45,094 nt of DNA from Clostridiales bacterium (GTDB lineage Bacteria > Bacillota > Clostridia > HGM11327). The translations under genes were made by a program, and so were the position numbers. Below are positions 565 to 24,077 of this stretch, one piece after another. The notes below the pieces were generated by a model. The model made no database searches and was not told where the DNA came from. It worked only from the letters and a program-made list of their open reading frames with translations. Within the stretch, counting starts at the first letter, position 1, and each line of letters begins with the position of its first letter. Where the stretch lies: assembly GCA_015056475.1 (NCBI GenBank), contig SVGF01000003.1, positions 1-45,094 of the forward strand, in the 5' to 3' direction.

Positions 565-1452
565 TTACTTTTTGAAATACTTTAGTATCGTTTCAATATA
601 TTTTTCTGTTTCTTCAATTCTCGGAAAATGTCCGCTATTATGAAATTCCACAACGGTTGCATTCGATAATCCTTTTATATACTGAGTCTGATCGTCACTG
701 CAAACAGGATCATATTTTCCCTTCAAGAGCAAAATGGGCTTATTAAGATCTTTCAAAACAGGCAAATAATTTTCACCTATTGCCCCATCCTTTAACAGAT
801 TAGAAAGGTGCATTTCATATTTTGCCCACATATCATCAGTAATTCCTACGGTTGAAAAGCTTGCCATATACTCCTCATAAGAAATGCCATGCAGATAAGT
901 TCGCAATTTCATATCTTTTACATAACCTAAAAGCTTGATAAGTTCAACCAAAGCATTACAGTCTTGGTAATCGAACGTTTTCATTTTTTTGCAATGCTCT
1001 ATTGCATCCGAATCTCCGGTCTGATCAATATAATCGGATAGATAAGCCGCAGACGACTTCGCAGAATCAGCAATATTAAGGCTTGGACCTTCCAATATGA
1101 TTTTATCAACTGAATCCGAATATTTGTTGGCATAGAAAACGGACAACGCTCCACCATATGAATGTCCGAGAACGCTCCAACTCTTGATGTTCAACTTACG
1201 ACGCATTTCTTCAATCATATCCGCTTGAACGTCCATTGAGTAATGCTCATTTTCTGCGATTGCCTCGGAGCGTAGCACACCGTATTGGTCAAAAGAAATA
1301 ACCTGTAATTCTTTACTTAGCATTTCCGCCGTATTGCCAAAATCCAAACAACTTGCGCCCGGTCCTCCATGCAAATACAAAAGAACCGTTTCATTGGTTG
1401 CTCCACGAATTTCGTAGTAAATATTTTTCCCGAAAATATTAATATACGCCAT
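565..1452 (-). CDS. Alpha/beta hydrolase, proline iminopeptidase-like (S33)
   Basis: LHGGPG oxyanion motif, GHSYGG nucleophile elbow, D(PV) and GHFP catalytic Asp/His. Start moved to ATG 1452 (MAYINIF), which follows AAGGA. Confidence 0.85.
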   Translation of the reverse strand: MAYINIFGKNIYYEIRGATNETVLLYLHGGPGASCLDFGNTAEMLSKELQVISFDQYGVLRSEAIAENEHYSMDVQADMIEEMRRKLNIKSWSVLGHSYGGALSVFYANKYSDSVDKIILEGPSLNIADSAKSSAAYLSDYIDQTGDSDAIEHCKKMKTFDYQDCNALVELIKLLGYVKDMKLRTYLHGISYEEYMASFSTVGITDDMWAKYEMHLSNLLKDGAIGENYLPVLKDLNKPILLLKGKYDPVCSDDQTQYIKGLSNATVVEFHNSGHFPRIEETEKYIETILKYFKK

Positions 1453-1523
1453 TTTATCTTCCTTTTTGTACTCTATTCCGATCTTTTTACATTCTCTTGT
1501 TGCCGATGGTTTATGCACACAAA

Positions 1524-1550
1524 TCGGCAGAAAAACAAGTTCTCTGCCGA
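1524..1550 (-). terminator. Putative intrinsic terminator after six-hairpin glycosidase
   Basis: TCGGCAGA/TCTGCCGA stem followed by a short T-run on the minus strand. Confidence 0.5.
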
Positions 1551-1613
1551 AGTTTTCGTGCTACTAATTCTCTGCTAAAAATGCAGAAAGAATTGATCGC
1601 ATACATTATCTTA

Positions 1614-3572
1614 TCACAATTCTCTGTTTGTCTTAAACGAAACTCTCTCGCCGAGCGTTGTGCCCTTGATGGAATTTGCAAATCCCACAACCTCGTAGCC
1701 GTCCTTTGTAACGGTGATAGTAACCTTATCGCCGCACATACGGAAGTTTGAAAGCACGACCTTATCCAAGCCCTCGGGGATTCTGGGAATGAATGAGAAT
1801 TCTCTTGCAGCTTCCGGTCTTATTGCAAGAATACCCTCAGGAATAATTCTGCAGAACAATGCGCTTTCTGCACTCAAATGACGTCTTGCGCCCTCGGGCC
1901 AAGCTTCGATAGCGTAAGGAACTCTTTCGCCCAAAAGTCTTGAGTTGCAATATTTGAAGAACTGTGTCCAAACGTTGCCGAATCTGCCGTTCATGAACGC
2001 ACCCTTGAATCCGTAAAGAGAAGCTCTATCCCAAACTGTAGCGGATTTATTTTCCGGTCCTATCTCGCAAGAAAGCATACCGTTTTCATTCCAGAGATAC
2101 TCTGAGAACATTGCATCAAGAGTATCCTCAAGTCGATCCGTAATGCCCATACACATCGGGAGACATATCCAAGCTCTGAGCGTATCAAAACCCTTTGAAT
2201 AACGGAATGTCTTATATCCGTGCAATTCCGCACCAAAATAATTCACGATAGCCGTCTTGAGTGATTCAGCTTTATCAACATACTTTTTGGCATAATCATG
2301 CTTATCAAGATACTCGGCGATCATTGCCATATATTTATAGCCGCCGTAAGCAAGGCATGACGTCGAAAGATTTGCACGATTATCCGTTGGGAATCTGCCC
2401 TCCAACTCGTCGGAGTGTGACCATATAACACCCTCGGGAAGTGTTTTGCGCTCACAATACTCAGCACACCATCTGAGTGCAGGCCACATTCTTTCCATCA
2501 TGAATTTATTACCGTGAGTAAGTGCAAACAAAGATCCGCCGTAGAGATACATTGCGGCATCTCCTCTGTCACCTGCGCCCTCCCATATATCTGTACCTTC
2601 TGCAATCACGGACGTAGGGATGTGTATATATTCCTCAGTCATAAACGGTGTATAGTGCTCGTAAGCATTTACCGACGCCTTGACTGCAGTAACGTCATCA
2701 GTAAATGCAAACCACGGACCTGCATACTCTACCTGGTCATTACACCAAGTTGCGGCATAATAGGTTCTTCCGCCGGGGCTATGGAACATGCCACCCTTTG
2801 TATTGAAAATGCTCTCCCCTGCTCTTATCTTGGCAAATCTATACATTGTGTCGAGAACTGCATTGCCTGTGTCAAGTGCAGCCTCATTTGAAAGCTCATT
2901 GACTCTTTCAATTCTGTCTTTGAGAGCCTTTTTCCAATCATAAAGTGCCTTATCGGGAGTATTGTAGTAATCTTCGCCAAAGTAATCGTATTTAAGCGCA
3001 TTTTTGTATGCTGAATAATAGATACAGAACGTGATGCTGTCACCCTTTGCAAGAGTCGTATCCTTTGCATCATGAGTTACTTCATGAACGTAAATGCCTG
3101 TAACCCCCCTTGAGATGCCGTATCTGCCACACTCTGTAACGGAAAGCTTTATCTCGTTTTCGGATGAATTTGTTATGTCGATAACTTCATACATTATCAT
3201 TTCCTTAGCATCGGGAATAAACGTCCTCTTGAGCTGAACGCCGCACTCAGTTACTGATTCAATAGCAAGAATACCGTTGATTGATACCTTTTTACCATAT
3301 TCCACCACCGGAATATCGTTTATAAGTATCTTGGGAAGCTTTGCATTGTCATAGTCAATCGCAAGAGTGCCGTGTGTATTGTTAGGAGACATTCTCAACG
3401 TAGGGAATGCGCAGTATCTTGCAAGAGTAAGAACGCCGTTTTCGTCAACGCCATAGTCAACTATACAATCCAAGCCCTTTCCCGAGAACTCAAAATTGTC
3501 CTTATGACCGAAATCTTCATTTTTTACGTCCCAAACGATGCCATCGCCCGAGATATTGAAATATTGCTTCAT
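1614..3572 (-). CDS. Six-hairpin (alpha/alpha)6 glycosidase-like protein
   Basis: 652 aa. Motifs PGGRTYYAATWCNDQVEY, GDRGDAAMY, SDELEGRF and PYAIEAWPEG..RHLSAES recall uncharacterised six-hairpin glycosidases of gut bacteria. AAGGA RBS; no signal peptide. Confidence 0.7.
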   Translation of the reverse strand: MKQYFNISGDGIVWDVKNEDFGHKDNFEFSGKGLDCIVDYGVDENGVLTLARYCAFPTLRMSPNNTHGTLAIDYDNAKLPKILINDIPVVEYGKKVSINGILAIESVTECGVQLKRTFIPDAKEMIMYEVIDITNSSENEIKLSVTECGRYGISRGVTGIYVHEVTHDAKDTTLAKGDSITFCIYYSAYKNALKYDYFGEDYYNTPDKALYDWKKALKDRIERVNELSNEAALDTGNAVLDTMYRFAKIRAGESIFNTKGGMFHSPGGRTYYAATWCNDQVEYAGPWFAFTDDVTAVKASVNAYEHYTPFMTEEYIHIPTSVIAEGTDIWEGAGDRGDAAMYLYGGSLFALTHGNKFMMERMWPALRWCAEYCERKTLPEGVIWSHSDELEGRFPTDNRANLSTSCLAYGGYKYMAMIAEYLDKHDYAKKYVDKAESLKTAIVNYFGAELHGYKTFRYSKGFDTLRAWICLPMCMGITDRLEDTLDAMFSEYLWNENGMLSCEIGPENKSATVWDRASLYGFKGAFMNGRFGNVWTQFFKYCNSRLLGERVPYAIEAWPEGARRHLSAESALFCRIIPEGILAIRPEAAREFSFIPRIPEGLDKVVLSNFRMCGDKVTITVTKDGYEVVGFANSIKGTTLGERVSFKTNREL

Positions 3573-3627
3573 AATTTATCCTTTCGTAATAGCAGTACTA
3601 AAAGAAACCCACTACGGGTACATGATA

Positions 3628-3656
3628 ATTATACCACATCTTTGATTCAATAGCAA
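3628..3656 (-). promoter_or_regulatory. Sigma-A promoter for six-hairpin glycosidase
   Basis: TTGCTA-17 nt-TATAAT with extended -10 TG. Confidence 0.6.
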
Positions 3657-3915
3657 TAGGCAATTTTGGCATGCTGTATATAAAAATATTGAATCGTCAA
3701 TAATGGGTGACAAATCATCGAGGAAAACGGGTAGGGTTTTATAATCAGACGTTTTCCGCGCAACATTTTGTATAACCATTTTGACTATCTGAAATATTTC
3801 AAACTGAATATTGCAATATTATTGGCAGTAATAAAAAAACTTCGCATTTTTATAAAAAATATGTTATAATAATGTTATAATAATAATGAAATATCGCTTA
3901 CATAAAGGAGCTAAA

Positions 3916-6228
3916 ATGAATATATTTACAAAGAATTTCATATCGTCGGGCTTTGGCTACGGCAATGCCGAAAATCCCCATTGTGCCCCACTTTTCCGTA
4001 AAACTTTTGATCTTGACAAATTACCCGAAAAGGCATCCTTGCTCATTACGGGCTTGGGCTTTTACCGCCTATTTATCAATTCAAAGGAGATCACAAAGGG
4101 GCATTTATCCCCATCCATTACAGACCCGGGGCTTATAGTTGCCTTTGACAAATACGATATCAAGCCATATCTCACAAAGGGCAAAAACGTTATAGGCGTT
4201 ATACTCGGCTCCGGATTCCGCTCAAGTATTTTAGGAATGTTTGCTGCAGGTAATTCGCTTGCAGGCGGAGATATGCTTTTGGCGCTCGCTTGTGATATTG
4301 ACGGCGAGATCTTTGAGGCTGATGAATCCTTTAAGGTGCACACCTCTCCCATACTTATGAATGACCTCAGATTTGGTGAGCACTACGATGCGCGCCTTGA
4401 AAAAGAAACAGACGGCTGGTTACTCCCCGAATTTGACGATTCTGAGTGGACAAACGCTCGCATAAACGATATTCCGCGCGGTGAGCAACGCATTTGCACA
4501 GCTCCTCCCATTAAAACAAGAAGAATTCTTACCCCCGTAAAGATATGGCGCGAGGATGACGGCATCATATACGATTTTGGTCAGAATGGTGCAGGGCTTT
4601 TATGCTTACACACCAACCTCCCCGAGGGCAGAAGAATAGCCGTTGACTTTGCAGAATACCTTTGGAACGGTAGATTCTATAACGAAACAATTACCGGCTC
4701 GGGTCCAAAAACAAAGGAATATCCATTTGGAAGCCAGAATTATATATACGTTTCAAAGGGCGGCGAGCAGCATTACAAGACGTCGTTTACGTATCAAGGC
4801 TTCAGATATGCTAAGGTTTACGGAATAAGCGACGAAGAAGCAACCCCCGAGCTTTTCACGTTTGAGCTGATGTCATCCGAAATGCGTGAAAGAGGAAATT
4901 TTGAATGTTCCGATGATATTCTTAACGCCGTTCAGAAATTAACGCGCGAGGCAACTCACTCAAATATGTTCCACATTCCAACCGACTGTCCGCACAGAGA
5001 AAAGAACGGTTGGACCGCGGACGCCGCAGTATCGTCCGTACATATGCTTCTCAATCTTGAAAGCGAGGGCGTATTCAACGAGTGGATGCACTCAGTAGCT
5101 GCCGCCATCGATAAAAACGGCGCAATGCCCGGCTGTGTGCCAGCACCTCCCGGAATGTTCTATGATTCATGGAACGGTCCCGGTTGGGATGCAGTTTTGG
5201 TTGAGATACCGTACAGATTGCTTGAACTGAGAGATGACCTCAAGAGCGCAAGAGTTGCAGCCCCGGCAATGTTCCGTTACGTTGCATACACACTCACAAG
5301 ACGTGATGAGAACGGACTCGTTCATATCGGACTTGGCGATTGGATGCCCCCGCACGATCCCATCAAAGCGCCTCGCGAGCTTACCGATACTATAATGTGC
5401 TACGATATTGCGCGCAAAGCCGCACTTTTATATGACAAGCTCTCAATGCCTGAGGTATCCGAATTCTGCTTTAAGGTTGCTCAAAATTACAGAAAAGCAG
5501 TAAGAGAGCATCTTATTGACACCGAAAACTGCATCGCGGCAGGTAATTGCCAAACGTCGCAGGCAATGGCGATATGCCTTAATATATTCGAGCCACACGA
5601 GCTCAAAAAAGCAACAGCTGTACTCAAGAGCATAGTTGAGGAGCTTGATTATCACGTTGATTGCGGTGTACTCGGCATGAGATATATTTTCAGAGCACTA
5701 AGCATAGGCGGTTATACCGACGTTGTTTACAAAATGATAGTTAACCCCATAGCACCATCGTATGCCGACATGGTATTCAGAGGCGAAACAACTCTCGCTG
5801 AGGACTTCAACGCGCTCGGTCAACGCATTAATTCAAGAAATCACCACTTCCTCGGTGACGTTTCCGCTTGGTTTATTGACACTGTATGCGGTATAAAGGT
5901 GAACCCCGAGATGAAAGGATCACTCTCTAACGCTAATAGGACGGGTAAATTTGCCCATTATGACGGTGCATCAAGGGTGGATATAATTCCGCACCTGCCC
6001 GAAGCACTCTCATACGCAAAGGCATATCACGAAACGCCCTACGGAACGGTAAAAGTTGAGCTTAAGCGAGTAAGAGAGGACTGGATAAGCATAAAGGTAA
6101 ACGTTGACGGTGAGCTTCACGGAAGAATTCTTCCGCCCGAAGGATATTTATTCGACGGATGCGGCGAATATCCCCTCGAAACCGGTGAATTTGACGCATT
6201 TAACCACGAAAGCGGCGGCTGGATGTAA
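3916..6228 (+). CDS. Alpha-L-rhamnosidase, GH78
   Basis: GLGFY, DFGQN, FTYQGFRY, PTDCPHREKNGWTADA, GDW and SRNHH motifs of GH78. Start at ATG 3916 after AAAGGAG. Confidence 0.9.
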   Translation: MNIFTKNFISSGFGYGNAENPHCAPLFRKTFDLDKLPEKASLLITGLGFYRLFINSKEITKGHLSPSITDPGLIVAFDKYDIKPYLTKGKNVIGVILGSGFRSSILGMFAAGNSLAGGDMLLALACDIDGEIFEADESFKVHTSPILMNDLRFGEHYDARLEKETDGWLLPEFDDSEWTNARINDIPRGEQRICTAPPIKTRRILTPVKIWREDDGIIYDFGQNGAGLLCLHTNLPEGRRIAVDFAEYLWNGRFYNETITGSGPKTKEYPFGSQNYIYVSKGGEQHYKTSFTYQGFRYAKVYGISDEEATPELFTFELMSSEMRERGNFECSDDILNAVQKLTREATHSNMFHIPTDCPHREKNGWTADAAVSSVHMLLNLESEGVFNEWMHSVAAAIDKNGAMPGCVPAPPGMFYDSWNGPGWDAVLVEIPYRLLELRDDLKSARVAAPAMFRYVAYTLTRRDENGLVHIGLGDWMPPHDPIKAPRELTDTIMCYDIARKAALLYDKLSMPEVSEFCFKVAQNYRKAVREHLIDTENCIAAGNCQTSQAMAICLNIFEPHELKKATAVLKSIVEELDYHVDCGVLGMRYIFRALSIGGYTDVVYKMIVNPIAPSYADMVFRGETTLAEDFNALGQRINSRNHHFLGDVSAWFIDTVCGIKVNPEMKGSLSNANRTGKFAHYDGASRVDIIPHLPEALSYAKAYHETPYGTVKVELKRVREDWISIKVNVDGELHGRILPPEGYLFDGCGEYPLETGEFDAFNHESGGWM

Positions 6229-6282
6229 ACAGAAGTTAAGGGCAGAGATTTTTACCGTGAGCCCCATAACGAAGTTTTAACA

Positions 6283-6328
6283 AAAAGCACTTATGATAAC
6301 GAATAAATCGTTTGTCATAAGTGCTTTT
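6283..6328. terminator. Bidirectional intrinsic terminator
   Basis: AAAAGCACTTATGA/TCATAAGTGCTTTT inverted repeat with A/T tails between convergent genes. Confidence 0.8.
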
Positions 6329-6358
6329 GCGTTGCTTCAGACAATTTTCTCCAGATAG

Positions 6359-6483
6359 TAATGAATTGACGCTTTGCGTCATGAATTGAAGCCTGACGGC
6401 TTCATGATTTGAAAACTTTGTTTTCATGAACGAAGTTCATTTCACGGCGCAAGCCAATTCATGCCATTTAGGGCAATTCATTA
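6359..6483. repeat. Composite palindromic element (MITE/REP-like): ATGAATT-hairpin units in nested inverted arrangement
   Basis: 10-bp terminal IR TAATGAATTG/CAATTCATTA and inner 9-bp IR CATGAATTG/CAATTCATG. Six mini-hairpins with different sequences: GACGC-TTT-GCGTC, GAAGCC-TGAC-GGCTTC, GAAAAC-TTT-GTTTTC, ATGAAC-GAA-GTTCAT, GGC-GCAA-GCC, GCC-ATTTAG-GGC. Confidence 0.75.
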
Positions 6484-6534
6484 TGGGCACGCTCGAATAA
6501 CTTATGTTAATCCTTCGTTATCGCGCGTGCCCAT
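6483..6534. other. Long hairpin adjacent to the composite element (possible terminator of the minus-strand operon)
   Basis: ATGGGCACGC/GCGTGCCCAT 10-bp stem extended by ATAAC/GTTAT; no clear U-tract. Confidence 0.5.
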
Positions 6535-6589
6535 TATTCTCTGCCCGTTTGGCTATCCACACAATTTTACGCAACTTAAACTTAACCCG

Positions 6590-7132
6590 TTACTTGCCGC
6601 TAAACATAAACGGATATGCGTCAAACGGCTTTTCTCCGGTTTTATTCGCCTTTGAAATCAAGTACTCCTGTTCAATTTTTATGTACTTTTTAGTTTCAAT
6701 CGCACCTTTTACAAAAACGATCAAGCCTAAAACATGGCAAATAATACAAGTCATCGTTACAGAGTCTAAGTCAATAAACATTGCAAGACAATCTACTACA
6801 AAAAACGCTGTAGCATAATACACAAGTGATTTTTTGACCTTTGACATCAAGCCCAACACAATGTACGCCAACCCACACAGCAAATATACAATCAAAGCGA
6901 GAATAAACTTTACCATTTCACCGTTTGATAATGCTTCAGCACTACAATTTGCAAGTAAATACGTCAACTGCGCTGTGCAAGGTAAAAACACATCAACGCC
7001 AAACAATTGCAAAACTCCATTGATCAAAGATATCACGCCAATAAATAGAATTACACACCTCAAAAACGTAAATTTTTTTGTATATATTTCTTTTAAGCTC
7101 ATACCCTTCGGGTATGGATCAAAAATAGCCAT
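6590..7132 (-). CDS. Hypothetical membrane protein (about 4 TM segments)
   Basis: 180 aa with hydrophobic stretches, GAGG RBS, 30 nt downstream of the XRE gene. Confidence 0.7.
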   Translation of the reverse strand: MAIFDPYPKGMSLKEIYTKKFTFLRCVILFIGVISLINGVLQLFGVDVFLPCTAQLTYLLANCSAEALSNGEMVKFILALIVYLLCGLAYIVLGLMSKVKKSLVYYATAFFVVDCLAMFIDLDSVTMTCIICHVLGLIVFVKGAIETKKYIKIEQEYLISKANKTGEKPFDAYPFMFSGK

Positions 7133-7162
7133 AGTATCCCTCCTCTACTAATTTGCAACTAT

Positions 7163-8290
7163 TTACTGCGCTGTTACTTTCTCTATCATTTTTTGATAAC
7201 GAGGATCCGATTTCAAATCTTCAAATCTTTCATCAGTCAGTTTTGTTATCAAATTCTGATGCCTGTCAATTCTCTTTCGATACAGTTCTTGTTTAATGGT
7301 GTTCAAAAGCGGAGTTTTTGGTCTGATGCTCTTGTCTATTCTTTCATAATCAATAAGGTCATAATCAACCATCTTCTCCAAATTCAGCAAGGCTTTGTCA
7401 TCATCACCGTATTTGAGATAAGCGTGTGCAATAAGCATATACATATCTCCGTATTCACGATGATGCAATGGCGGCATTATCTCATTATCCTTAAAAATGC
7501 AATTGATCAATTCTATTGACGTTTCCAACGTCTTTGCGGCATCCAAGTATTTTTCCTGAAGCATATAGCTGTTATATAATTTTACCGTTGTATTGAGCAT
7601 AGATTCAAGGTAATGCAATATCGCCCACTGACAGTGTATGCTCTCCATGCCGTATTCCCTTTTCCAATGCGCATAATAAGTGAGCATATTGTGAATATTG
7701 AAATCTGCACGAGCTGGGAACTGCTCCAGATGCAGCTTTGCCGCTTCAAAATTGCCGTATGCTGAATGAAGAGCAACCATTATCATATGCGCACGCATAA
7801 TATCGGACGCATTTTTTGAATATGATATAACCAAATTAGCATATCTTTCGCATTCATGGTAAATTTCCTCAGCGTGCTCAGGGTCATAAACCTCTTCGTT
7901 TTCAGGATAAGACAATGCTATTCCCGTTTCCAATAGATTTGCGAGTAACATTGGATTATTTGGATAGATCTTTAATCCCTCTTTTAAGGCACAATGCTTT
8001 GCGTAAAAATTTTCTGCTGTGATCGGAGCAGAAAGCAAGCTTTGAGCATCCTCAATAATTTTAATTACTTCTTCGGTAGTATTTATACCAACAGTACCAA
8101 ACAAAACGTCCGTGCTTACGCCAAACACATTTGCAATAGGCACAACCTGGGATATATCAGGCATTCCTGCATCGTTTTCCCATTTCGATACAGCTTGAAA
8201 CGTAACGTCCAGCTGTTCGGCAAGCTCTTCTTGTGTGAGATTTCTCTCCTTTCGCAATCTGCGAATGATCTGTCCCATAGTTTCGTTCAT
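7163..8290 (-). CDS. XRE-family HTH transcriptional regulator with C-terminal helical (TPR-like) domain
   Basis: IRRLRKERNLTQEELAEQLDVTFQAVSKWE...PD HTH_3 signature followed by about 300 aa of helical repeats. GAGG RBS. Confidence 0.88.
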   Translation of the reverse strand: MNETMGQIIRRLRKERNLTQEELAEQLDVTFQAVSKWENDAGMPDISQVVPIANVFGVSTDVLFGTVGINTTEEVIKIIEDAQSLLSAPITAENFYAKHCALKEGLKIYPNNPMLLANLLETGIALSYPENEEVYDPEHAEEIYHECERYANLVISYSKNASDIMRAHMIMVALHSAYGNFEAAKLHLEQFPARADFNIHNMLTYYAHWKREYGMESIHCQWAILHYLESMLNTTVKLYNSYMLQEKYLDAAKTLETSIELINCIFKDNEIMPPLHHREYGDMYMLIAHAYLKYGDDDKALLNLEKMVDYDLIDYERIDKSIRPKTPLLNTIKQELYRKRIDRHQNLITKLTDERFEDLKSDPRYQKMIEKVTAQ

Positions 8291-8441
8291 AATTGTTCCT
8301 CACAATCGTAAATAATTAAACAAACCAAATTGCGCAATTTAAATTTGCAAGTATATTATCCCACACATTTATAAAAAAGTTAAGCGACTTAAAAATGAGT
8401 TAAACTCAACTTTGCGTTGAGCTGTGTTGAAGAAAAGATCT

Positions 8442-9773
8442 TCAATTACTCTCAACTACAACCTTGACAGAATCATCCGATACGCTGTACCTGACCTCAC
8501 CGTGATCTATGTTAATATCGATTGAAATATCGTTTGTAACGGCAAGCTCGGTGATGGAGATGCGCTCATTTTTCAGTTGTTTTGGGATTTTGGGAGAAAC
8601 GGTGACGGTCTTATTGTCCGCGCTGTACGAAACGCCAAATATAATTTCTACGATCAATTCCAGATATTGTGAAGCTGTCCACGCATATCGAATAACTCCA
8701 TGACCGCTTCCGTCAAACGGATTTACAAATTCAGCGCTATTATGGTTGAATATGCAAATCGTCTTGAAACAAAGCTCGGTTGCCAGATCAACCTCACCGC
8801 AATCGAAAAGCCCGCGCACCACCATCTCATTGATCAACGTCCAAACGTTGCCGCTCCAGCTTGCATTTCCTTGATACTCACCTGTAGTAACAGTAAATAT
8901 ACTATCCTGCTTGGACACAGATGTTAATGGAATGGTATCCCAATTAAAGTGCTCATGATCTTTCAGCAGGCGTATAAGCTTTTCAGCTCTGTCCTTACCT
9001 GCAATATTCATTCTCAACGGAAAAAACGTTGATGCCATAAGACGATCACTAAGCTTTTTTTCATTTATAAGATAAGCAAAATATGCACCTTTTTCTTCGT
9101 TCCACAAATACTGATTTATACTCTGCTTGAGCTGTGCTTTTCTTGCTTCAAGCAGGCTTGCATCCTCAGTCATTCCAAGTTCCTTAGCCAATAGACCCGT
9201 ATAATGACATCCGACACAAACCTCAACATTGGTATCAACAGGCGCATATTCGCCTGCAGATCCAAGGTATGGAACAAACGTTTCCTCAAACACAGCAGAG
9301 ATCAAGCCTGTTTCTTTATCCTGTCGATTTAAGAACCACCAATCAAGGTAACGTTTCATCATTTTATAAGTCAGCAGCTTTAAGTTCTTATCCGTTGAGC
9401 CCTTGACAATATGATACGCAACGTCAAAAAGCTTAGGCAATGAAGAAACGCCCACGGTCTGCGTTAAACGGTCGCCCCCTGCTACCACCAATGGCAAATC
9501 GTCCGCTCCCCAAAGGCATATTCTGCCGTCATCTCTTTGCGATTCGATGAAATTCAAAAGAGAAGTTTCCGTAAACGCTCTGTCCACCCACTGATAGCCC
9601 CGCAATGACACCGTTGAATCCAACTGCCACCATTGCTTTCCGTAGTGACCGCCCGGAGTAAAATAAGGGTAATTAAAACCACAGCTTTTAGCATCATCCT
9701 GCTTGCACATTTCAAGAGTCTCAATTGCATATTCCAAATCATTTTGCGTTATGTAAGAACATTGAATTATCAT
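8442..9773 (-). CDS. GH63/MGH1-like (alpha/alpha)6 glycoside hydrolase
   Basis: PGGHYGKQWWQLDS, PVDTN, LWNEEKGAY, WSGNVW and YAWTA match the MGH1/trehalase-like catalytic barrel. Start moved to ATG 9773 after AAGGAG. Confidence 0.72.
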   Translation of the reverse strand: MIIQCSYITQNDLEYAIETLEMCKQDDAKSCGFNYPYFTPGGHYGKQWWQLDSTVSLRGYQWVDRAFTETSLLNFIESQRDDGRICLWGADDLPLVVAGGDRLTQTVGVSSLPKLFDVAYHIVKGSTDKNLKLLTYKMMKRYLDWWFLNRQDKETGLISAVFEETFVPYLGSAGEYAPVDTNVEVCVGCHYTGLLAKELGMTEDASLLEARKAQLKQSINQYLWNEEKGAYFAYLINEKKLSDRLMASTFFPLRMNIAGKDRAEKLIRLLKDHEHFNWDTIPLTSVSKQDSIFTVTTGEYQGNASWSGNVWTLINEMVVRGLFDCGEVDLATELCFKTICIFNHNSAEFVNPFDGSGHGVIRYAWTASQYLELIVEIIFGVSYSADNKTVTVSPKIPKQLKNERISITELAVTNDISIDINIDHGEVRYSVSDDSVKVVVESN

Positions 9774-9870
9774 ATAAAAACTCCTTTGATCTTGCAGATC
9801 CAATAACATAATGAAACGCATTTGTCAGTAGTTCATCCTTGTACGTTTCAATAATTACTTCATTGCAATT

Positions 9871-9899
9871 ATTATAGCATAATACCACACATTTTGCAA
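9871..9899 (-). promoter_or_regulatory. Sigma-A promoter for GH63-like gene
   Basis: TTGCAA-17 nt-TATAAT with extended -10 TG. Confidence 0.6.
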
Positions 9900-9928
9900 T
9901 ACAAAAGAGAAACCTCAACCAAAACCAC

Positions 9929-9957
9929 TTGACAAAAACCGATTTTTCCGTTATAAT
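9929..9957 (+). promoter_or_regulatory. Sigma-A promoter of valS leader
   Basis: Perfect TTGACA-17 nt-TATAAT. Confidence 0.85.
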
Positions 9958-9965
9958 ATACACAT

Positions 9966-10180
9966 CAAGCTGTTCGAGGGGTAGCGATCTTTCAGCAACA
10001 GAGAGGGCAACGTTTTGGTGCAAGTTGCCTTGCGTAAAGTAGATCGCGAGTTGCGAATATGCTCCGAGTTTCGGCGGGTAGCTCCGTTATGGGCTTTGAG
10101 TGTCGCATTTTATGCGGAATTAAGGTGGTAACGCGGAGATAGCTTCGTCCTTTGTTTTTAGGGCGAAGCTTTATTTTATT
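9966..10180 (+). ncRNA. T-box riboswitch (Val)
   Basis: AGAGA and GGTG boxes in stem I, T-box AAGGTGGTAACGCG (about 10122-10135) and terminator AGCTTCGTCC/GGGCGAAGCT plus T-tract. Val codons lie in or near the specifier loop (GTT 10050-52; GTA 10039-41). Confidence 0.9.
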
Positions 10181-12940: not shown

Positions 12941-13342
12941 ATGAATATTATAGCTTGTATCGATAACGAAAACGGAATACTATTTAACTCAAGAAGACAA
13001 AGCCGCGATGCCCATATTTTTGATGATATCAAAAATACCATCGACTCAAAAATCATCTATTGTTCCGAATATTCCGCAAAATTATTGCAAGAGTACTCGC
13101 TTTCACCTGCGGTAGTCAAAACGTTAAAAGCCGTACCTGAAAACGGATACTATTTTCTCGAAAACACTCTGCCGCCGGATCTCTTGCCCGAAATCAAAAA
13201 GGTGATAATATATAAATGGAATAAATCATATCCCAAGGATACTTATCTTGGAATGGACTTTTCAAATATAAAGCTCGTTCACACGTCTGATTTTCAAGGT
13301 AAGTCGCATAAATTGATCATAAAGGAAATATATGAATTATGA
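12941..13342 (+). CDS. Conserved hypothetical protein with DHFR-like N-terminus (family I recall being auto-labelled 'ribonuclease Z')
   Basis: MNIIACIDNENGILFNSRRQSRD resembles the dihydrofolate reductase N-terminus; WNKSYPKD and FQGKSH motifs. No metallo-beta-lactamase HxHxDH. Overlaps the next gene (ATGA). Confidence 0.6.
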   Translation: MNIIACIDNENGILFNSRRQSRDAHIFDDIKNTIDSKIIYCSEYSAKLLQEYSLSPAVVKTLKAVPENGYYFLENTLPPDLLPEIKKVIIYKWNKSYPKDTYLGMDFSNIKLVHTSDFQGKSHKLIIKEIYEL

Positions 13343-14838
13343 AAATATATAAAAAACTGCTTACATATTTAAGTGTACTTCTTATATCATTATCCCTTAT
13401 CAGCTCATGTATAACTGCGCCAACGCCATCACACAATATTCCCGATGAAATACTTACGTTAGCCAACGTACCCGAATTTTCCGATAAAGCCTACGTTGCA
13501 ATAAACTCAAACGTTCCGTATTTTACCGAGAGCGAATTGACGGTTGACTCTTACGAGTATTATTCAGAGCTTGATTCTCTAGGCAGATGCGGTATTGCCA
13601 TCGCATGCATAGGTATTGATATAATGCCGACCGAAGATAGAGGCAGCATAGGTTCAATTAAACCAAGCGGTTGGCAATCTGTAAGATACGATATCGTTGA
13701 CGGCAAGTATCTTTATAACAGATGCCACTTGATAGCATTTATGCTTGCAGGTGAAAACGCAAACAACAAGAATCTCATCACAGGTACCCGTTACATGAAT
13801 ACCGAAGGTATGCTTCCGTTTGAGGATATGGTGCATGATTACGTTGTTGAAACAGAGAATCACGTTATGTACAGAGTAACGCCCATATTCCGTGACAATG
13901 AGCTTGTAGCAAGAGGCTGCTTGATGGAAGCATATTCTGTTGAGGATAACGGTGAAGGTATCTCTTTCTGTGTTTACGTATATAATGCACAGCCGGGTAT
14001 AACAATAAACTATGCAGACGGCTCAAGCGCACTAAATGGCCAACCTTTGCCAAGTCCCGGTGCATCATCTGCCCCGTCCGACGTCAGCTTCATACTCAAC
14101 ACAAGCTCAAAAAAGTACCATAAGCCCACCTGCTCACAGATCAACAGGATCAGCGAAAACAACAGGGCTGAATTCTTTGGTGATGAGCAAGATCTTATTG
14201 AAGATGGCTATACTGCCTGCGGTACTTGCTTTAAGGGCGAAGTTTCCGACATTTCTACACCATCGCCTACATCCACTCCAACTGTTATCCCAACAGCAAC
14301 TCCCACTCCGATAGTTATACCGACAGTAACGCCTGCTCCGACAGCTTCACCGACGCCAACGGTAACACCGACACCGTCTTTAGCAACGCCTTCACTCAAG
14401 CCTACCGTTACACCATCTCAAACACTACCACCCGAAGCAAATATTACTTACGTGCTTAATACAAGCTCAATGAAGTATCATAAGCCAAACTGCTCGCAAG
14501 TAAACAGGATCAGCGAAGAAAACAAGGCTGATTTCTACGGTAGCGAGCAAGATCTTATTGATGACGGTTATACAGCTTGCGGAACTTGTCACAAAAATCA
14601 AAGCGCAGACAGCTCAACTACTGCGCCGACTACAACGCCACAGGCACCATCAATCCTACCGACACCCACAGATAATAATTCAATCACATACGTGCTGAAT
14701 ACAAGCAGTTTGAAGTACCACTTGCCGTCTTGTGCGCACGTAAAGAGAATTAAAGAGGAAAATAAGGAGAAATATAGCGGAAGTTTGGGAGAACTAACCG
14801 GAAAAGGCTATACCCCTTGCGGCACCTGTATACGGTGA
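13339..14838 (+). CDS. Lipoprotein DNA/RNA non-specific (DNA-entry-type) endonuclease with three Ada-like Zn-binding modules
   Basis: Lipobox-like LISSC; LDSLGRC, PSGW, YNRCHLI, NLITGTRYMN and YRVTP of the beta-beta-alpha-metal nuclease family. Three 47-aa LNTSSxKYHxPxC...GYTxCGTC repeats with Pro/Thr linkers. Confidence 0.88.
   Translation: MKIYKKLLTYLSVLLISLSLISSCITAPTPSHNIPDEILTLANVPEFSDKAYVAINSNVPYFTESELTVDSYEYYSELDSLGRCGIAIACIGIDIMPTEDRGSIGSIKPSGWQSVRYDIVDGKYLYNRCHLIAFMLAGENANNKNLITGTRYMNTEGMLPFEDMVHDYVVETENHVMYRVTPIFRDNELVARGCLMEAYSVEDNGEGISFCVYVYNAQPGITINYADGSSALNGQPLPSPGASSAPSDVSFILNTSSKKYHKPTCSQINRISENNRAEFFGDEQDLIEDGYTACGTCFKGEVSDISTPSPTSTPTVIPTATPTPIVIPTVTPAPTASPTPTVTPTPSLATPSLKPTVTPSQTLPPEANITYVLNTSSMKYHKPNCSQVNRISEENKADFYGSEQDLIDDGYTACGTCHKNQSADSSTTAPTTTPQAPSILPTPTDNNSITYVLNTSSLKYHLPSCAHVKRIKEENKEKYSGSLGELTGKGYTPCGTCIR
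14089..14829 (+). repeat. Three intragenic 141-bp repeats (14089-14229, 14449-14589, 14689-14829) separated by Pro/Thr-rich linkers
   Basis: Visible in protein and DNA; copies 1 and 2 share AACAGGATCAGCGAA and GAGCAAGATCTTATTGA. Confidence 0.85.
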
Positions 14839-21197: not shown

Positions 21198-24077
21198 ATG
21201 AATTTTAAGAAAATTTTTATAGTTCTGCTTTTTGCGTGTATGTGTTTTTTCAGCGCATGCGGTGTTGACTCAGACGTAACCGTTCTTGAGCTCAACGGCG
21301 ATATAACTATTTCTGCCGACGGTAGCATTACATGTGACGGTAAACTGATATCCGGTTCAAAAAACACAAATCTCAAATCATCTGCCGAATACGTTATTAA
21401 GCAGGACGGCAGTATTATTGTACGAGTGGACGGCAACGAATATCTTATTCAGAAAGACGTTGACGTTGTTATTCCCGCAAAGGATGCAGATATTCCACAG
21501 ATAACTACTTCATCAAACAATATCTACTCCATACCGCTGGACGGAATAAACGTTGGTAACACAACTATAACGCACGATTGCTCGATAGTTTCGGGCGATA
21601 ACAAGATCACTTCCGATGAGAACGGTAATATGGTTATTTCCACGTCAAAGGGTGACTATATCATAAACAAAAAGGACGTTAAACCATTGAGTTCAAACGA
21701 CGATACTGTCAGCGTTACCTTGCCCGACGGACAAACTGTCGGCGTCACCGATATTATGGACATCATCAACGGAATTTCCATTAACCTTGACGGTTCAATA
21801 ACTATCGACGGCTCGATCGTATCAAATTCTGACGAAGGCATTACGCTTTCAACCGAGTTTGGTGATTATTCCGCAAACGTCAATAACGTTACTATTTCTG
21901 CAGAGGAGGTAAAAAACCTCGTATATCAAATAACAGGTGAGGACGGCAATGTTCTTGACTTGATAAATCTTGCAAAGGATATTACCATTGACAAAAACGG
22001 TAACGTTGTAACGCCCAACGGTACTATCTCCATTCAAGACGGTATGGTTACGATAGATGCACCAAAAAAGAGCACTGCTTACATACTGCCCAACGGAATT
22101 GTGGTTGACAGAGGCGCCATTGAGCGTAACAAGGACGGCACTGTAATATTGCCCGAAACAGTAACCACATTCACCACCGAAGACGATCAGGTTGTCGTTG
22201 TGTATGAAAATGAAATGAAATTTACTCCCGACAATTTGTGTTATGAATATACTTATTGGACATTTACCACTCTTGACGGTTTTGGCAACTATTCATCCAA
22301 CCGAGTTGCAAAGACTAATAACAAAGCCGCTTTTGTCACAGTCACACTCTATGATTATAATTATCTTGATGAATGGAATGAACCTAGAATGATCTATGTC
22401 GAAACAACTTGGATAAGTGATTCCGAGTTGGTAGAGCACTCCGATTACGAATACGATGCAGACGGCTTTAACACACAAATTACATCTCAAATATGTAACC
22501 CTGTTACACGGGAAAGATCCAAGACCGTTACCGTATTCACTAAGGATGATCCGTTTTATTGTGCGATTTATTCTTATGATAAAAATGACAAGCTGATCAA
22601 TCATACAGAAATACATAACTTTGACGATCCTGATATCTCATTCCCGCAGGTTTACAAGAGATTCAATTCAAACGGTGTTTTAGTTCATTATTCCGAAATG
22701 GACAAGACAGGTACGGAAATAGTAGTTTGCGAGTATGCAGATGACGGTACACTTCTCCGCCACACAACGCCCAACTCCTCAACTTACTACAATGAGGACG
22801 GTACACACACCATGGAATATTGGTATGCTGACGGCTCCGGCGGTTATATCACCACTTATGCAACAGGTGATTCGCTTGAAAACATAAGAGATACTCAAGA
22901 CAGATACATTTATCAGAAGTATTACGACAGCAATGGCGAGCTTATTAATTACTTTCACTATCAGTATGACATTGATGGCTATGCCAAGATCACCACAATC
23001 ATCAGAAATAATTATGACCAATCAACGCCTTATAAGACCATGATCTATGAAAATGCAGATGAAATTACTCTACTGCGCCAAGAATATACCATTGATGAGA
23101 AGTTGATTTCTGAACTTAAATACGCTGATGACGGAACACCGATCTACATAGAGTATTTTGACAGCTCAACCAACACTCACACATCTACTTATTATAATGT
23201 TGACGGATGGTGGTATGTTGAAACCTGTAACTATTATTCCACAGGTGAAAAAAGAATATCTTATGCAAAAAAGCTTGAAAATAAGGGTTACGAAGGTATT
23301 GAACAGGATTTCGTTGAAAAAGCAATCAAGGTAATATATTACTACTCTAACGGCAATGTTTATTCAATAAGCGAATATGATGAGGATTTTGAAAATAACT
23401 TCCCCATTTTATTTGAGAGATACAACCAGGACGGAGCTCTTATTTATAAGGAATCCTTAAATCATTCTCTTGAGCATATGGAGGACGGCACTATTGTTGA
23501 AATGTTTAAGAATGATGACGGTTCAATAAGGCGCATTACAATTTATCCTAATGGAAGCAAATATGAAACAGTTACAAATGCTCAAGGTGAACAAACATAT
23601 GAAGCAAACTATGACACTAACGGTGATCTTTTATTCTCATCCTCTACTGAATACAACGTTGACGGTTATGCAAAAAAGGTAACCTCCATTCTCGAATATA
23701 ACACGGATTCAAATATATACAAAACCATCAAATGCTATAACCATCAAGTTATTCTTGTCAGTGATATGAGCTACAACAAAAATGGAGTACTCGTAGAAGA
23801 TACCCAATATGACGATGACGGAAACTGTCTCTATATTAAAACATATCACGATACTGGAAGTCCAAAAAACGCATTGGAATTTGATTACAATGTTGACGGT
23901 TGGTATTACGTAACAAAAGGTTATTCGTACCCATCGGGGAAAATAATATCTTACAGTTACCACGATCATAACCTCTTGTGCAGAAAATATGTTGCTTACC
24001 TTGACGACGGAACCTTGTGGTGGATAAGTGAGTATGACGAAAACGGTAACGAAATATACACCAAATACTATATATAA
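21198..24077 (+). CDS. Large lipoprotein with N-terminal beta-hairpin (DG/NG) repeats and C-terminal YD/MORN-like repeats
   Basis: Signal peptide with FSAC lipobox; many YDxxG/YNVDG units; AGGAG RBS; own promoter and terminator. Confidence 0.75.
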   Translation: MNFKKIFIVLLFACMCFFSACGVDSDVTVLELNGDITISADGSITCDGKLISGSKNTNLKSSAEYVIKQDGSIIVRVDGNEYLIQKDVDVVIPAKDADIPQITTSSNNIYSIPLDGINVGNTTITHDCSIVSGDNKITSDENGNMVISTSKGDYIINKKDVKPLSSNDDTVSVTLPDGQTVGVTDIMDIINGISINLDGSITIDGSIVSNSDEGITLSTEFGDYSANVNNVTISAEEVKNLVYQITGEDGNVLDLINLAKDITIDKNGNVVTPNGTISIQDGMVTIDAPKKSTAYILPNGIVVDRGAIERNKDGTVILPETVTTFTTEDDQVVVVYENEMKFTPDNLCYEYTYWTFTTLDGFGNYSSNRVAKTNNKAAFVTVTLYDYNYLDEWNEPRMIYVETTWISDSELVEHSDYEYDADGFNTQITSQICNPVTRERSKTVTVFTKDDPFYCAIYSYDKNDKLINHTEIHNFDDPDISFPQVYKRFNSNGVLVHYSEMDKTGTEIVVCEYADDGTLLRHTTPNSSTYYNEDGTHTMEYWYADGSGGYITTYATGDSLENIRDTQDRYIYQKYYDSNGELINYFHYQYDIDGYAKITTIIRNNYDQSTPYKTMIYENADEITLLRQEYTIDEKLISELKYADDGTPIYIEYFDSSTNTHTSTYYNVDGWWYVETCNYYSTGEKRISYAKKLENKGYEGIEQDFVEKAIKVIYYYSNGNVYSISEYDEDFENNFPILFERYNQDGALIYKESLNHSLEHMEDGTIVEMFKNDDGSIRRITIYPNGSKYETVTNAQGEQTYEANYDTNGDLLFSSSTEYNVDGYAKKVTSILEYNTDSNIYKTIKCYNHQVILVSDMSYNKNGVLVEDTQYDDDGNCLYIKTYHDTGSPKNALEFDYNVDGWYYVTKGYSYPSGKIISYSYHDHNLLCRKYVAYLDDGTLWWISEYDENGNEIYTKYYI

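Follow-up and report, generated by a model that had tools for sequence, protein, structure and literature searches.

A probable decayed copy of a dispersed linker-and-hairpin repeat family of gut Clostridia

The REP, BIME and REPIN sequences are proteobacterial intergenic elements, dispersed as inverted palindromic units in which each hairpin has a short conserved motif at its foot; they contain no ORF, leave no target duplication, are often located in 3′ untranslated or inter-cistronic regions, and their stems are conserved within a genome. The BOX repeats of Streptococcus pneumoniae and the Correia, ERIC and RUP repeats are modular, non-coding, multi-copy intergenic sequences of 100–200 bp that fold stably, and some BOX/MITE repeats carry promoters or affect the neighbouring transcripts. 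Where studied, REP, BOX and Correia shape transcript stability, termination and genome rearrangement. GNA triloops closed by a C-G pair, moreover, are very stable in DNA. Oscillospirales-type Clostridia are dominant in animal and human guts and mostly uncultured, and to our knowledge no dispersed structured repeat has been described for them. Two further systems are relevant here: the Gut-1 motif, recorded as "human gut only" (Weinberg et al. 2010, PMC2864571), and the Avd protein, which is described as structurally similar to S23-type proteins and as a pentamer binding a structured RNA element (bioRxiv 10.1101/2023.10.23.563531).

The window, i.e., the whole stretch of DNA that was analysed (45,094 bp), contains at 6359..6483 a 125-bp palindromic element that the first-pass annotation had described as constant linkers alternating with variable hairpins. 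When the sequence was re-read and the coordinates re-derived, all the units listed there were found base for base. In plus-strand order, two exact linkers ATGAATTG (6361–6368 and 6381–6388) have a hairpin between them (6368–6380) and are followed by a second hairpin (6388–6403), the variant linker ATGATTT (6404–6410) and a third hairpin (6411–6425). Then come the hairpin originally taken for the centre of the element (6426–6440), a mutated linker (6439–6445, reading GTGAAAT on the minus strand) and two hairpins (6446–6455 and 6463–6474), each followed by an inverted linker CAATTCAT (6455–6462 and 6474–6481). The outer 10-nt inverted repeat (6359–6368/6474–6483) and the inner 9-nt one (6380–6388/6455–6463) are both 100% complementary, as had been reported. 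Once aligned with the related loci L063, L065, L051 and L048, the minus strand of the window shows the orientation of the family centre marker and was thus taken as sense; a weak match to Gut-1 falls on the minus strand as well. In the sense reading, the hairpins at 6446–6455 and 6463–6474 and their linkers become hairpins 1–2 and linkers 1–2, the hairpins at 6411–6425, 6388–6403 and 6368–6380 become hairpins 5, 6 and 7, and the two exact ATGAATTG linkers are the last two CAATTCAT linkers.

Within the 45,094 bp of the window, 4 occurrences of the octamer ATGAATTG were counted, as many as chance would give (4.03), and 4/4 fall inside the 125 bp. The region folds as DNA with −27.3 kcal/mol, compared with −13.6 ± 2.6 for shuffled sequences (z −5.28; 0/200 shuffles as good), and as RNA with z −6.23 on the plus and −5.81 on the minus strand. 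The idea that a small ORF is conserved through the element was considered and discarded, hairpin lengths not being multiples of three and frames differing among copies (by eye); loop–loop (kissing) complementarity between the arms, looked for by eye in the window and a few copies, was not evident. No tRNA or tmRNA was detected in the window, and the whole intergenic region gave no blastn match in plasmid and phage collections.

Searching Rfam at curated thresholds, no family was found on the element, either in the window or in 20 full loci, the only hit being one tRNA elsewhere; this is in accordance with the earlier failure to assign the element to any named family. The nearest look-alike was Gut-1 (RF01706), scoring 21.3 bits in the window against a cut-off of 50, while the best sub-threshold scores of the same model on the 20 relatives were 28.7 and 29.7 bits (2/20 loci), in the sense 5′ arm. 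A description of the repeat was not found in the full-text literature, where coverage of subscription journals is thin, and the family is apparently undescribed and widespread in gut Clostridia.

The first-pass proposal of a mobile or REP-like element was supported in that a pattern scan of species-representative genomes showed this non-coding repeat to have many copies, retrieving at least 121 loci against about 3 chance matches expected (our own arithmetic, with uniform base composition). A covariance model, R1, built from 36 full-length copies, confirmed 117 of the 120 loci searched (E ≤ 0.01) among the matches listed; the three loci missed by the model were Saprospiraceae, Bacteroidia and Terrimonas records, and the confirmed ones almost all come from gut MAGs of Clostridia/Oscillospiraceae type. 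Because three exact linkers were used to find the loci, the invariance of the linkers at these three positions, as well as part of each model score, follows from the search itself. The relatives are MAG contigs throughout, and all locus counts are lower bounds. On the window, the R1 score was 70.1 bits (E 6e-11) for the minus strand, the plus strand giving 62.5 bits, and full-length members score 100–160 bits; a second copy was not found in the 45-kb window, either by blastn-short or by R1 at E ≤ 10. The model and the alignment together identify the 125-bp element as a shortened, internally deleted copy of a repeat of about 160 bases.

A full-length member of the family (~160 nt) is composed of four ATGAATTG linkers, an asymmetric centre, four CAATTCAT linkers and seven hairpins: each ATGAATTG linker precedes a hairpin closed by G...C and, after the centre, three hairpins are each followed by CAATTCAT. 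The polarity given by the asymmetric centre is conserved across the family, and 35 of 74 copies have the 4+4 arrangement, the others differing in module count. Linkers are conserved as sequence, whereas the hairpins are free in sequence and keep their pairing. Indeed, of the 379 distinct inserts between linkers, 269 form perfect hairpins (mean 6.15 and maximum 16 in 200 shuffles), with 97 distinct stem strands among them. In the 36 full-length copies, the seven hairpins are 86.4% paired (65.9% when shuffled) and their covariation is 0.451, compared with 0.140 after shuffling (0/500 reach the observed value) and at most 0.094 with the partners slid; changes on both sides were observed in 29 of 36 hairpin pairs. 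Selection on hairpin pairing, first suggested from the window alone, is supported by these values. The 5′ linker and the first hairpin strand can alternatively pair with the centre, in competition with hairpin 1; in this covarying long-range helix between the 5′ end and the centre, pairing reaches 95.6% and 4 pairs have changes on both sides. As for the pairing of left with right linkers into stacked four-way junctions, also proposed in the first-pass annotation, it is present in the DNA minimum-energy fold but does not covary: over the three inner linker pairs of the 36 full-length relatives, 95.0% of positions are paired, exactly as in the shuffled control (95.0%), with a covariation of 0.038 against 0.040 and one position mismatched in 20/36.

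Compared with L063 and L065, about 41 nt are missing from the window copy, corresponding to hairpin 4, the centre and one linker. The gap is located between two TTCATGAA direct repeats, with the junction at the edge of the hairpin 6426–6440, which adjoins the 3′ arm because of this deletion; the supposed centre is therefore, in the family, hairpin 3 of the 5′ arm. The window copy lacks the 3′ strand of the long-range helix and departs from the complete 4+4 architecture, and its hairpin 1 has one unpaired position more than in L063.

In the sense reading, the first linker is abutted by a long hairpin (6484..6535, minus strand; stem GGGCACGC/GCGTGCCC at 6485–6492/6525–6532), conserved in L063, L048 and L051; nearly all oriented members of the family have a hairpin abutting the first linker, and its sequence varies. 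Downstream of the element on the minus strand, a terminator-like hairpin (6283..6328) with 17-nt arms, 94% complementary, is preceded by an A run and followed by a T run and can thus work on both strands; L063, L065, L048, L051 and L110 retain it together with the element. The consensus terminator scan made 0 calls in 5900–7400, the element included, with a loop limit of 8 nt that leaves out the 12-nt loop of hairpin 6283–6328. The hairpins of the element itself are followed by linkers and not by U runs. All these parts belong to a composite unit of ~290 bp (6249..6537, minus strand), common to five other genomes and comprising the 5′ hairpin, the element, a spacer, the terminator hairpin and an inner inverted repeat (6261–6285/6502–6526). 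When positions 3000–10000 of the window were compared with all loci by blastn, matches were confined to 6248–6535 and the flanking genes were unmatched; identities over the unit were 83.5% with L063 (328 columns), 75.5% with L048, 74.4% with L051, 83.0% with L110 (over 182) and 98.8% with L065 (over 172). Just outside the unit lie the halves of a 9-bp GC-rich inverted repeat, GGGCAGAGA on the left (6240..6248) and TCTCTGCCC on the right (6538..6546), 100% complementary; at the equivalent two boundaries L063 has a different 10-bp inverted repeat, with an A run and a T run. The neighbouring genes are a GH78 alpha-L-rhamnosidase gene on the plus strand (3886..6228; Bac_rhamnosid6H, 1.3e-60), convergent with the next gene, and, on the minus strand, a 180-aa ORF (6590..7132) with no Pfam or NCBIfam match, the element being 3′ of this ORF on the same strand.

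At least 14 genomes carry two loci each, with within-genome copies 77–98% identical, similarity confined to the unit and unrelated flanks, which supports the proposal of a mobile or REP-like element in the first-pass annotation. One MAG has the same ~270-bp block, without a single difference, on two of its contigs (L061 and L070), again between unrelated flanks; in this recent duplication the copied block spans from the 5′ hairpin to the terminator-like hairpin. A second copy is present in 8 of 79 four-kb loci, and a contig end lies within 500 bp in 22 of 78 loci, against 7.8 expected. The genes bracketed by two copies (deacetylase, uxaC, GNAT, putative amidotransferase) were considered as candidate transposases and are instead ordinary metabolic genes. 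No transposase, integrase, recombinase or reverse transcriptase was detected by Pfam among 280 ORFs within 2 kb of 79 loci, and no Y1/HUH (RAYT) protein was found among the same ORFs, taken from the 2-kb flanks of MAG contigs, so that the proposed link to a Y1/RAYT or other transposase found no support within these flanks, a search that would miss an enzyme encoded elsewhere in the genome. The missing mobilising enzyme, among these 280 ORFs, speaks against a dispersed repeat. The TA-flanked, IS630/MITE-type reading of the first-pass annotation is not supported either: of 73 oriented copies, 1 has TA on both sides and 50 have CA before the first linker, and no target duplication was found at the boundaries of the recent paralogues L061/L070 or at those of L006/L064. 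Some copies abut hairpins, including the terminators of tRNA genes, and the copy of L036 is placed between the operon genes rimM and trmD. Insertion into a hairpin loop, as a general rule, was rejected, the mean longest flank-to-flank inverted repeat being 7.7 nt in 56 copies and 7.3 nt after shuffling; because the enclosing inverted repeat is not general, the reading of an insertion into a terminator loop comes from two loci, the window and L063.

The copies are, in conclusion, discrete units at unrelated intergenic sites, without target duplication or a neighbouring transposase, and we think it probable that the element of the window belongs to a dispersed modular repeat family of gut Clostridia, as a copy that has decayed and undergone an internal deletion. 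Mobility is suggested by the comparison of paralogues. The units are probably transcribed from their own promoter or within the transcript of a neighbouring gene, and would act as folded single strands, either RNA or DNA. In the window, the copy with its 5′ hairpin and the two-way terminator hairpin would make up the ~290-bp unit. This unit lies between two convergent genes, apparently at the apex of a split GC-rich inverted repeat, and looks like an insertion into the terminator that these genes share. The copy would lie on the transcript of the minus-strand gene and, because its centre is lost, it is most likely a passenger, whose remaining effect would be that of a stable hairpin array in the 3′ untranslated region.

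In 8 loci, which come from different genomes and form one subfamily, a consensus promoter of the form TTGACA-17-TGnTATAAT precedes the first linker by 26–28 nt; promoter-like matches on the antisense side are weak and have no fixed position. In crude scans, the numbers of promoter-like sites (11 vs 11) and of terminator-like sites (28 vs 33) on the two strands did not reveal an overall asymmetry; by crude ORF calls, the gene downstream runs in the direction of the element in 26 cases vs 11. In 17 loci, L072 among them, the start of a PF05635 four-helix-bundle gene lies no more than ~45 nt downstream, always on the sense strand, and the copies so linked sit behind at least three different upstream contexts. 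The PF05635 proteins are 64–97% identical between genomes, compared with 35–65% for the adjacent RumA-like proteins. Their NCBIfam matches are limited to TIGR02436 and two sub-threshold "hypothetical protein" models, and their closest solved relative is 2RLD, with five chains in one entry.

These features can also be read, with some plausibility although we do not favour it, as those of paralogous genes for a functional structured RNA, either a Gut-1-like small RNA or a 5′-leader element. Single-stranded AUGAAUU motifs, spaced by hairpins, would then bind an oligomeric partner, for which the PF05635 protein encoded downstream is the best candidate; the competing 5′ helix would be a switch, the copies would have arisen by ordinary duplication and the window copy would be a broken gene. 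The alternative of a structured RNA, already considered in the first-pass annotation, gained support from the promoter at fixed distance, the conserved polarity and the covarying long-range helix competing with hairpin 1. Linkers conserved without compensating changes are, likewise, what would be expected of a recognised motif and not of a helix, and the position of the PF05635 gene, its different upstream contexts and the better conservation of its product point in the same direction. On the same side are the five chains of 2RLD, the RNA-binding pentamer of Avd (bioRxiv 10.1101/2023.10.23.563531) and Gut-1, which has the same architecture and is likely an RNA according to its authors (PMC2864571). 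Polarity, promoter subfamily and PF05635 linkage are explained by a functional RNA gene no less well than by a selfish repeat.

On the contrary, the stems are not those usual for an RNA selected on one strand. Among 990 sense-strand stem pairs, 975 are Watson–Crick, 5 G.U and 10 A.C, without the excess of G.U over A.C that was looked for, and counting in unit orientation gave 1352 Watson–Crick, 16 G.U and 32 A.C pairs. Loops are mirror-image between the arms (TNC-type for 90 of the 158 loops of the 5′ arm, GNA-type for 78 of the 145 loops of the 3′ arm), which makes both strands look alike, and triloops are common. The PF05635 gene, moreover, adjoins 17 of ~125 copies and is not found beside the window copy, and identical copies at unrelated sites, together with the enrichment of contig ends, resemble a mobile repeat. 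The near absence of G.U and the frequent GNA triloops favour a single-stranded DNA form, and promoters and polarity an RNA form.

A further reading, which we regard as unlikely, would make the repeat the nucleic-acid half of a ribonucleoprotein system of gut Clostridia, selfish or regulatory, that has so far gone unrecognised. The repeat would then be a multi-hairpin RNA, mobile and transcribed from its own promoter, whose AUGAAUU linkers would be bound by an oligomeric PF05635 (S23p/Avd-like) protein, with the copies lacking the protein, the one of the window included, being non-autonomous or decayed. The contact between the PF05635 protein and RNA is here a conjecture.

Decidedly unlikely, along the specific lines of the first-pass annotation, is a REP/BIME- or REPIN-like element, or an IS200/IS605-type derivative, recognised and moved as folded single-stranded DNA by a Y1/HUH enzyme with a single gene elsewhere in the genome, with the linker as the conserved motif at the foot of each hairpin. 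The almost purely Watson–Crick stems with no G.U preference would agree with it, as would the frequent GNA triloops closed by C-G, which sit on the strand reading hairpin-then-CAATTCAT in both arms, the two-fold symmetric arrangement of the units, the lack of target-site duplication, the copies abutting hairpins such as tRNA-gene terminators, and the presence of several copies per genome, none of them with an ORF. The missing Y1/HUH protein among the 280 flanking ORFs is weak evidence against it, because such genes are single-copy. No two of the six or seven hairpins within an element have the same sequence, which leaves a protein only their shape and the linker to read, and the asymmetric centre and the promoter subfamily would be superfluous. 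Finally, it is very improbable that the family is a duplex array, resembling iterons, operators or transposon ends, in which a sequence-specific DNA-binding protein would recognise ATGAATTG sites spaced by about two helical turns, with direct copies in one arm and inverted copies in the other. The linkers of the window are spaced at 20, 23 and 22 bp in the left arm and at 19 bp in the right, which is compatible with this, as is the conservation of linkers as sequence and not as pairs; an array, however, gives no reason for spacers that keep hairpin pairing (269/379 vs ~6; 29/36 pairs changed on both sides) and leaves the covarying long-range helix unaccounted for.

Taken as a dispersed modular repeat, the family has an unusual design, with constant linkers, free hairpins, a fixed module count and a competing long-range helix, and is abundant enough to break MAG assemblies. 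A family model in annotation would mask recurrent spurious small ORFs and contig breaks. The family also makes a connection between a repeat, or RNA, and the orphan PF05635 four-helix-bundle proteins amenable to testing, and provides a likely relative for the unexplained Gut-1 motif. If the ribonucleoprotein reading were true, it would provide a first function for the orphan "four helix bundle protein" family and for Gut-1-type RNAs, and it could point to an RNA-mediated spread, one duplicated block running from the 5′ hairpin to the terminator-like hairpin.

Comparison with the known systems gives likenesses and differences in each case. With respect to the REPs as generally described, the hairpins here differ both within one element and between copies, the linker alone being constant; the host group is the Clostridia, the arrangement is a fixed 4+4 with a polar centre, and the flanking ORFs include no RAYT. 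A variable number of modules is shared with the BOX/MITE repeats, 35 of 74 copies here being 4+4, but likeness in sequence is not expected, the copies show compensatory divergence instead of a near-identical consensus and, unlike the Correia and RUP MITEs, TA duplication occurs in 1 of 73, although terminal inverted repeats of 9–10 nt are present in the window. As in the 23S rRNA intervening sequences, a PF05635/TIGR02436 gene stands beside a strongly structured, apparently mobile RNA-like element; the elements described here, however, are located outside rRNA genes. They also differ from the Avd of diversity-generating retroelements in that no reverse transcriptase was found among the 280 flanking ORFs. 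The likeness to Gut-1 is in the plan, in which a short linker rich in purines (UGAAAU in the consensus of the model) alternates with small hairpins free in sequence, and in the UUC/UUGC-type hairpin loops, as seen in the model-to-sequence alignments. The Gut-1 model covers 77 positions and three hairpins only, whereas the family described here has the linker AUGAAUU, a second arm with the complementary linker, an asymmetric centre and a long-range helix; the habitat is shared, both being found in the gut, the present family in gut Clostridia.

The base sequence of the 125-bp element (6359-6483), read again from the window with re-derived coordinates, is exactly as given in the first-pass annotation, and both inverted repeats reported there, of 10 nt (outer) and 9 nt (inner), proved perfect in an inverted-repeat search. 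In its left part, a perfect small hairpin comes after each of three linkers, two of them ATGAATTG and one the variant ATGATTT; a short hairpin (6426-6440) lies between these units and the right arm, where two hairpins are each followed by CAATTCAT. The 45-kb window contains four occurrences of ATGAATTG, as many as chance predicts, but all of them fall inside the element. Against dinucleotide shuffles, the element folds with a z score of -5.28 as DNA and of -6.23 and -5.81 as RNA of either strand (0/200 as good), and the entire intergenic region with -9.3 (+) and -7.6 (-). The convergent neighbours are a GH78 rhamnosidase gene (3886-6228, +) and a 180-aa ORF (6590-7132, -) with no match in Pfam or NCBIfam; a long hairpin (6484-6535) adjoins the element and a terminator-like hairpin (6283-6328) lies beside it. 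No second copy was found over the 45 kb, either by a blastn-type search or with R1, the covariance model of the repeat family, and plasmid and phage collections held nothing similar. Elsewhere in the window, ORFs 1614-3572 (-, 652 aa) and 21198-24077 (+, 959 aa) are without Pfam match at E<=0.001. The window also carries a DNA/RNA non-specific endonuclease (Endonuclea_NS_2) gene at 13339-14838 (+); a second such gene, at 760-1689 (+) of locus L010, is some 300 bp away from the family copy there, probably a coincidence.

A scan of a species-representative genome collection for a pair of direct linkers plus an inverted one retrieved at least 121 loci, about 3 chance matches being expected by our own arithmetic under uniform base composition. 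R1, built from 36 full-length copies, was run against 120 loci, L005 being omitted for its overlap with L004, and 117 of them matched at E<=0.01; the remaining three comprise every Bacteroidota-type record of the set. The element thus has many relatives, as the proposal of a multi-copy repeat had implied; the finding is real, and the linker-hairpin repeats, structured and dispersed, make up a large family that is apparently undescribed. The matched loci belong to MAGs labelled Clostridia, Eubacteriales, Oscillospiraceae, Acutalibacteraceae, Ruminococcus, Christensenellales, Lachnospiraceae and similar. One Synergistes-labelled MAG, of a phylum otherwise absent from the matches, contains two copies (L016 and L094; 107 and 131 bits), which could reflect horizontal transfer or a binning error. 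The scan pattern fixed three of the eight linkers, so that the invariance of these three and part of each R1 score follow from the ascertainment of the loci; the other five, free in the pattern, are nearly invariant too. Full-length copies score 100-160 bits in sense and 50-100 bits in antisense, and the window copy reaches 70.1 bits (minus strand) and 62.5 bits (plus strand).

An asymmetric centre orients 74 of 127 element clusters and defines the sense strand (taken as minus in the window); the canonical four-plus-four linker layout is found in 35 of these 74. In the sense 5' arm, each of four ATGAATTG linkers is followed by a hairpin (H1-H4), the centre, ending in GCAATTCAATTCAT, comes after H4, and the 3' arm carries H5-H7, each followed by an AATTCAT-type linker. 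H5 is swapped in many copies for a conserved module that is rich in purines and built around a GCGAAGC mini-hairpin. On the sense strand, a hairpin of arbitrary sequence adjoins the first linker in nearly all oriented copies, and CA directly precedes this linker in 50 of 73. Copies also stand head to tail, at least two per array and with short, hairpin-forming spacers (L054, 2001-2372; L013, 1888-2172; L106, 285-693; L036, 1891-2105), and the family therefore forms tandem arrays as well.

Perfect hairpins, defined as at least 3 bp from both ends with a loop <=7, are formed by 269 of 379 distinct inter-linker inserts, against a mean of 6.15 and a maximum of 16 in 200 shuffles; the inserts comprise 97 distinct stem strands, and 325/379 begin with G and end with C. 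Pairing of the seven hairpins stands at 86.4% in the alignment of 36 sequences (65.9% shuffled), 29 of 36 hairpin pairs have changed on both sides, and covariation reaches 0.451, against 0.140 shuffled (0/500 shuffles as high) and <=0.094 with partners slid. The selection on hairpin pairing suggested earlier is thus borne out. The four-way junctions postulated along with it were not supported, since the three inner left-right linker pairings lack covariation (0.038 vs 0.040) and contain uncompensated mismatches, 20/36 at one position; judging from the alignment, the linkers seem to be conserved as sequence and not as helices. RNAalifold predicted a 12-pair long-range helix joining the first linker and the 5' strand and loop of H1 with the centre, 95.6% paired and with four covarying pairs. 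This helix and H1 are mutually exclusive; because it reaches bases in the H1 loop, it is not a by-product of H1.

As to whether the selected form is RNA or single-stranded DNA (or both strands), the evidence is split. For RNA speaks the conserved polarity of the family, together with a near-consensus TTGACA-17-TGnTATAAT promoter that precedes the first linker by 26-28 nt in 8 loci from different genomes, promoter-like matches on the antisense side being weak and not fixed in position. Moreover, the downstream gene is co-directional with the element in 26 cases vs 11 (crude ORF calling), and many copies lie within operons or leaders (rimM-trmD, era-recO, after rpsI, after tRNA terminators). Single-stranded DNA, or both strands, is favoured by the almost purely Watson-Crick stems, in which G.U pairs do not outnumber A.C pairs (5 vs 10 of 990 sense-strand pairs; 16 vs 32 of 1400 in unit orientation). 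The two arms mirror each other in loop type, with TNC-type loops in 90/158 hairpins of the 5' arm and GNA-type loops in 78/145 of the 3' arm, and both strands therefore look alike; triloops, which are favoured in DNA mini-hairpins, are common, and overall strand asymmetry is absent in crude scans (promoter-like 11 vs 11, terminator-like 28 vs 33). A MITE of the TA-duplication type, following from the first-pass description of a TA-flanked element, is excluded, as TA stands on both sides in 1/73 copies. Many copies also flank translation or RNA-processing genes, namely rplM-rpsI, rimM-trmD, ybeY-era-recO, ylxR/infB, rny, alaS, ileS, pyrH-frr, a SpoU methylase gene, mnmE and tRNA genes (L003, L053, L036, L042, L056, L064, L032, L060/L078, L045, L076, L052, L038), a plain listing of neighbours and not a measure of enrichment.

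Each of fourteen genomes contributes two loci, with within-genome copies 77-98% identical and similarity ending at the unit. L061 and L070, on two contigs of one MAG, have in common an identical ~270-bp block spanning 5' hairpin, element and terminator-like hairpin, with unrelated flanks and no target duplication, and L006 and L064 are 94% identical over 230 bp, stopping exactly at the last linker. A second copy is present in 8/79 four-kb loci; the genes bracketed by two copies, considered as candidate transposases, were ordinary genes. Copies lie <=500 bp from a contig end in 22/78 loci vs 7.8 expected (p about 5e-6), as expected of a repeat that breaks assemblies. The presumed transposase link found no counterpart, 0/280 ORFs around 79 loci matching Pfam transposase, integrase, recombinase or reverse transcriptase families (150 scanned at E<=1e-6, 130 at E<=1e-12).

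Aligned with L063, L065, L051 and L048, the window copy lacks about 41 nt, which hold H4, the centre and a linker, and the gap is bordered by TTCATGAA direct repeats; of the remaining linkers, one is mutated, and H1 is weakened. It is a decayed family member, and the deletion is recent, since L065, 98.8% identical over 172 bp, retains the centre. Similarity to these genomes covers only 6248-6535, the flanking genes being without match, so that a ~290-bp composite of 5' hairpin, element, terminator hairpin and inner inverted repeat recurs in different contexts. The outermost of the nested inverted repeats (6240-6248 / 6538-6546) is GC-rich and brackets the composite, as does a GC-rich repeat of unrelated sequence, with A and T runs, in L063 (about 1859-1868 / 2197-2206); to judge by sequence, both look like a two-way terminator split by insertion. 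As a family-wide rule such splitting was discarded, comparison of the flanks showing that it is not general. The minus-strand order is ORF 7132-6590, 5' hairpin, element and terminator hairpin, and a promoter scan found no promoter-like site between ORF and element; the window copy would therefore be transcribed as the 3' untranslated region of this ORF, and is most likely a passenger in a terminator region that the two genes share.

Among the 121 matches listed, 19 contain a gene of the PF05635/TIGR02436 'four helix bundle' type. In 17 loci it starts no more than about 45 nt downstream of the element, without exception on the sense strand (L014, L040, L050, L057, L066, L067, L069, L072, L074, L075, L083, L087, L089, L091, L105, L109, L120); tblastn at E<=1 found none in the window. 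The contexts upstream of element and gene vary (a RumA-type methyltransferase gene, the element's own promoter, other genes). Where present (L057, L072, L083, L087, L109, L040, L050, L014), the RumA-type rRNA/tRNA uracil-5-methyltransferase ORF stops inside the first linker, and its last codons form the adjoining 5' hairpin, with compensatory differences between genomes, the complementary strand tracking the coding differences. Between genomes, identity is 64-97% for the four-helix-bundle proteins and only 35-65% for the adjacent RumA-like proteins. In the promoter subfamily, the element is followed by a conserved motif, and the PF05635 gene behaves as an insertion/deletion between the two. 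This motif of about 20 nt follows promoter-bearing elements in L028, L052, L045, L085, L035, L046 and L119; in L069 it comes after the PF05635 gene, which sits between element and motif. The nearest solved structure is 2RLD (one entry, five chains). Avd is described in a preprint as a pentameric barrel, similar to S23 proteins, that binds a defined RNA element (10.1101/2023.10.23.563531).

No Rfam family reached its curated threshold on the element, either in the window or in the 20 full loci scanned, and no description of the linker-hairpin repeat was found in the literature searched. REP/BIME/REPIN, BOX and Correia-type elements are its functional analogues. The best sub-threshold matches were to the Gut-1 model (RF01706), always in the sense 5' arm, with 21.3, 28.7 and 29.7 bits vs a cut-off of 50. 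Gut-1, described by its authors as a probable RNA of the human gut only (PMC2864571), has the linker-hairpin design in common with the repeat family.
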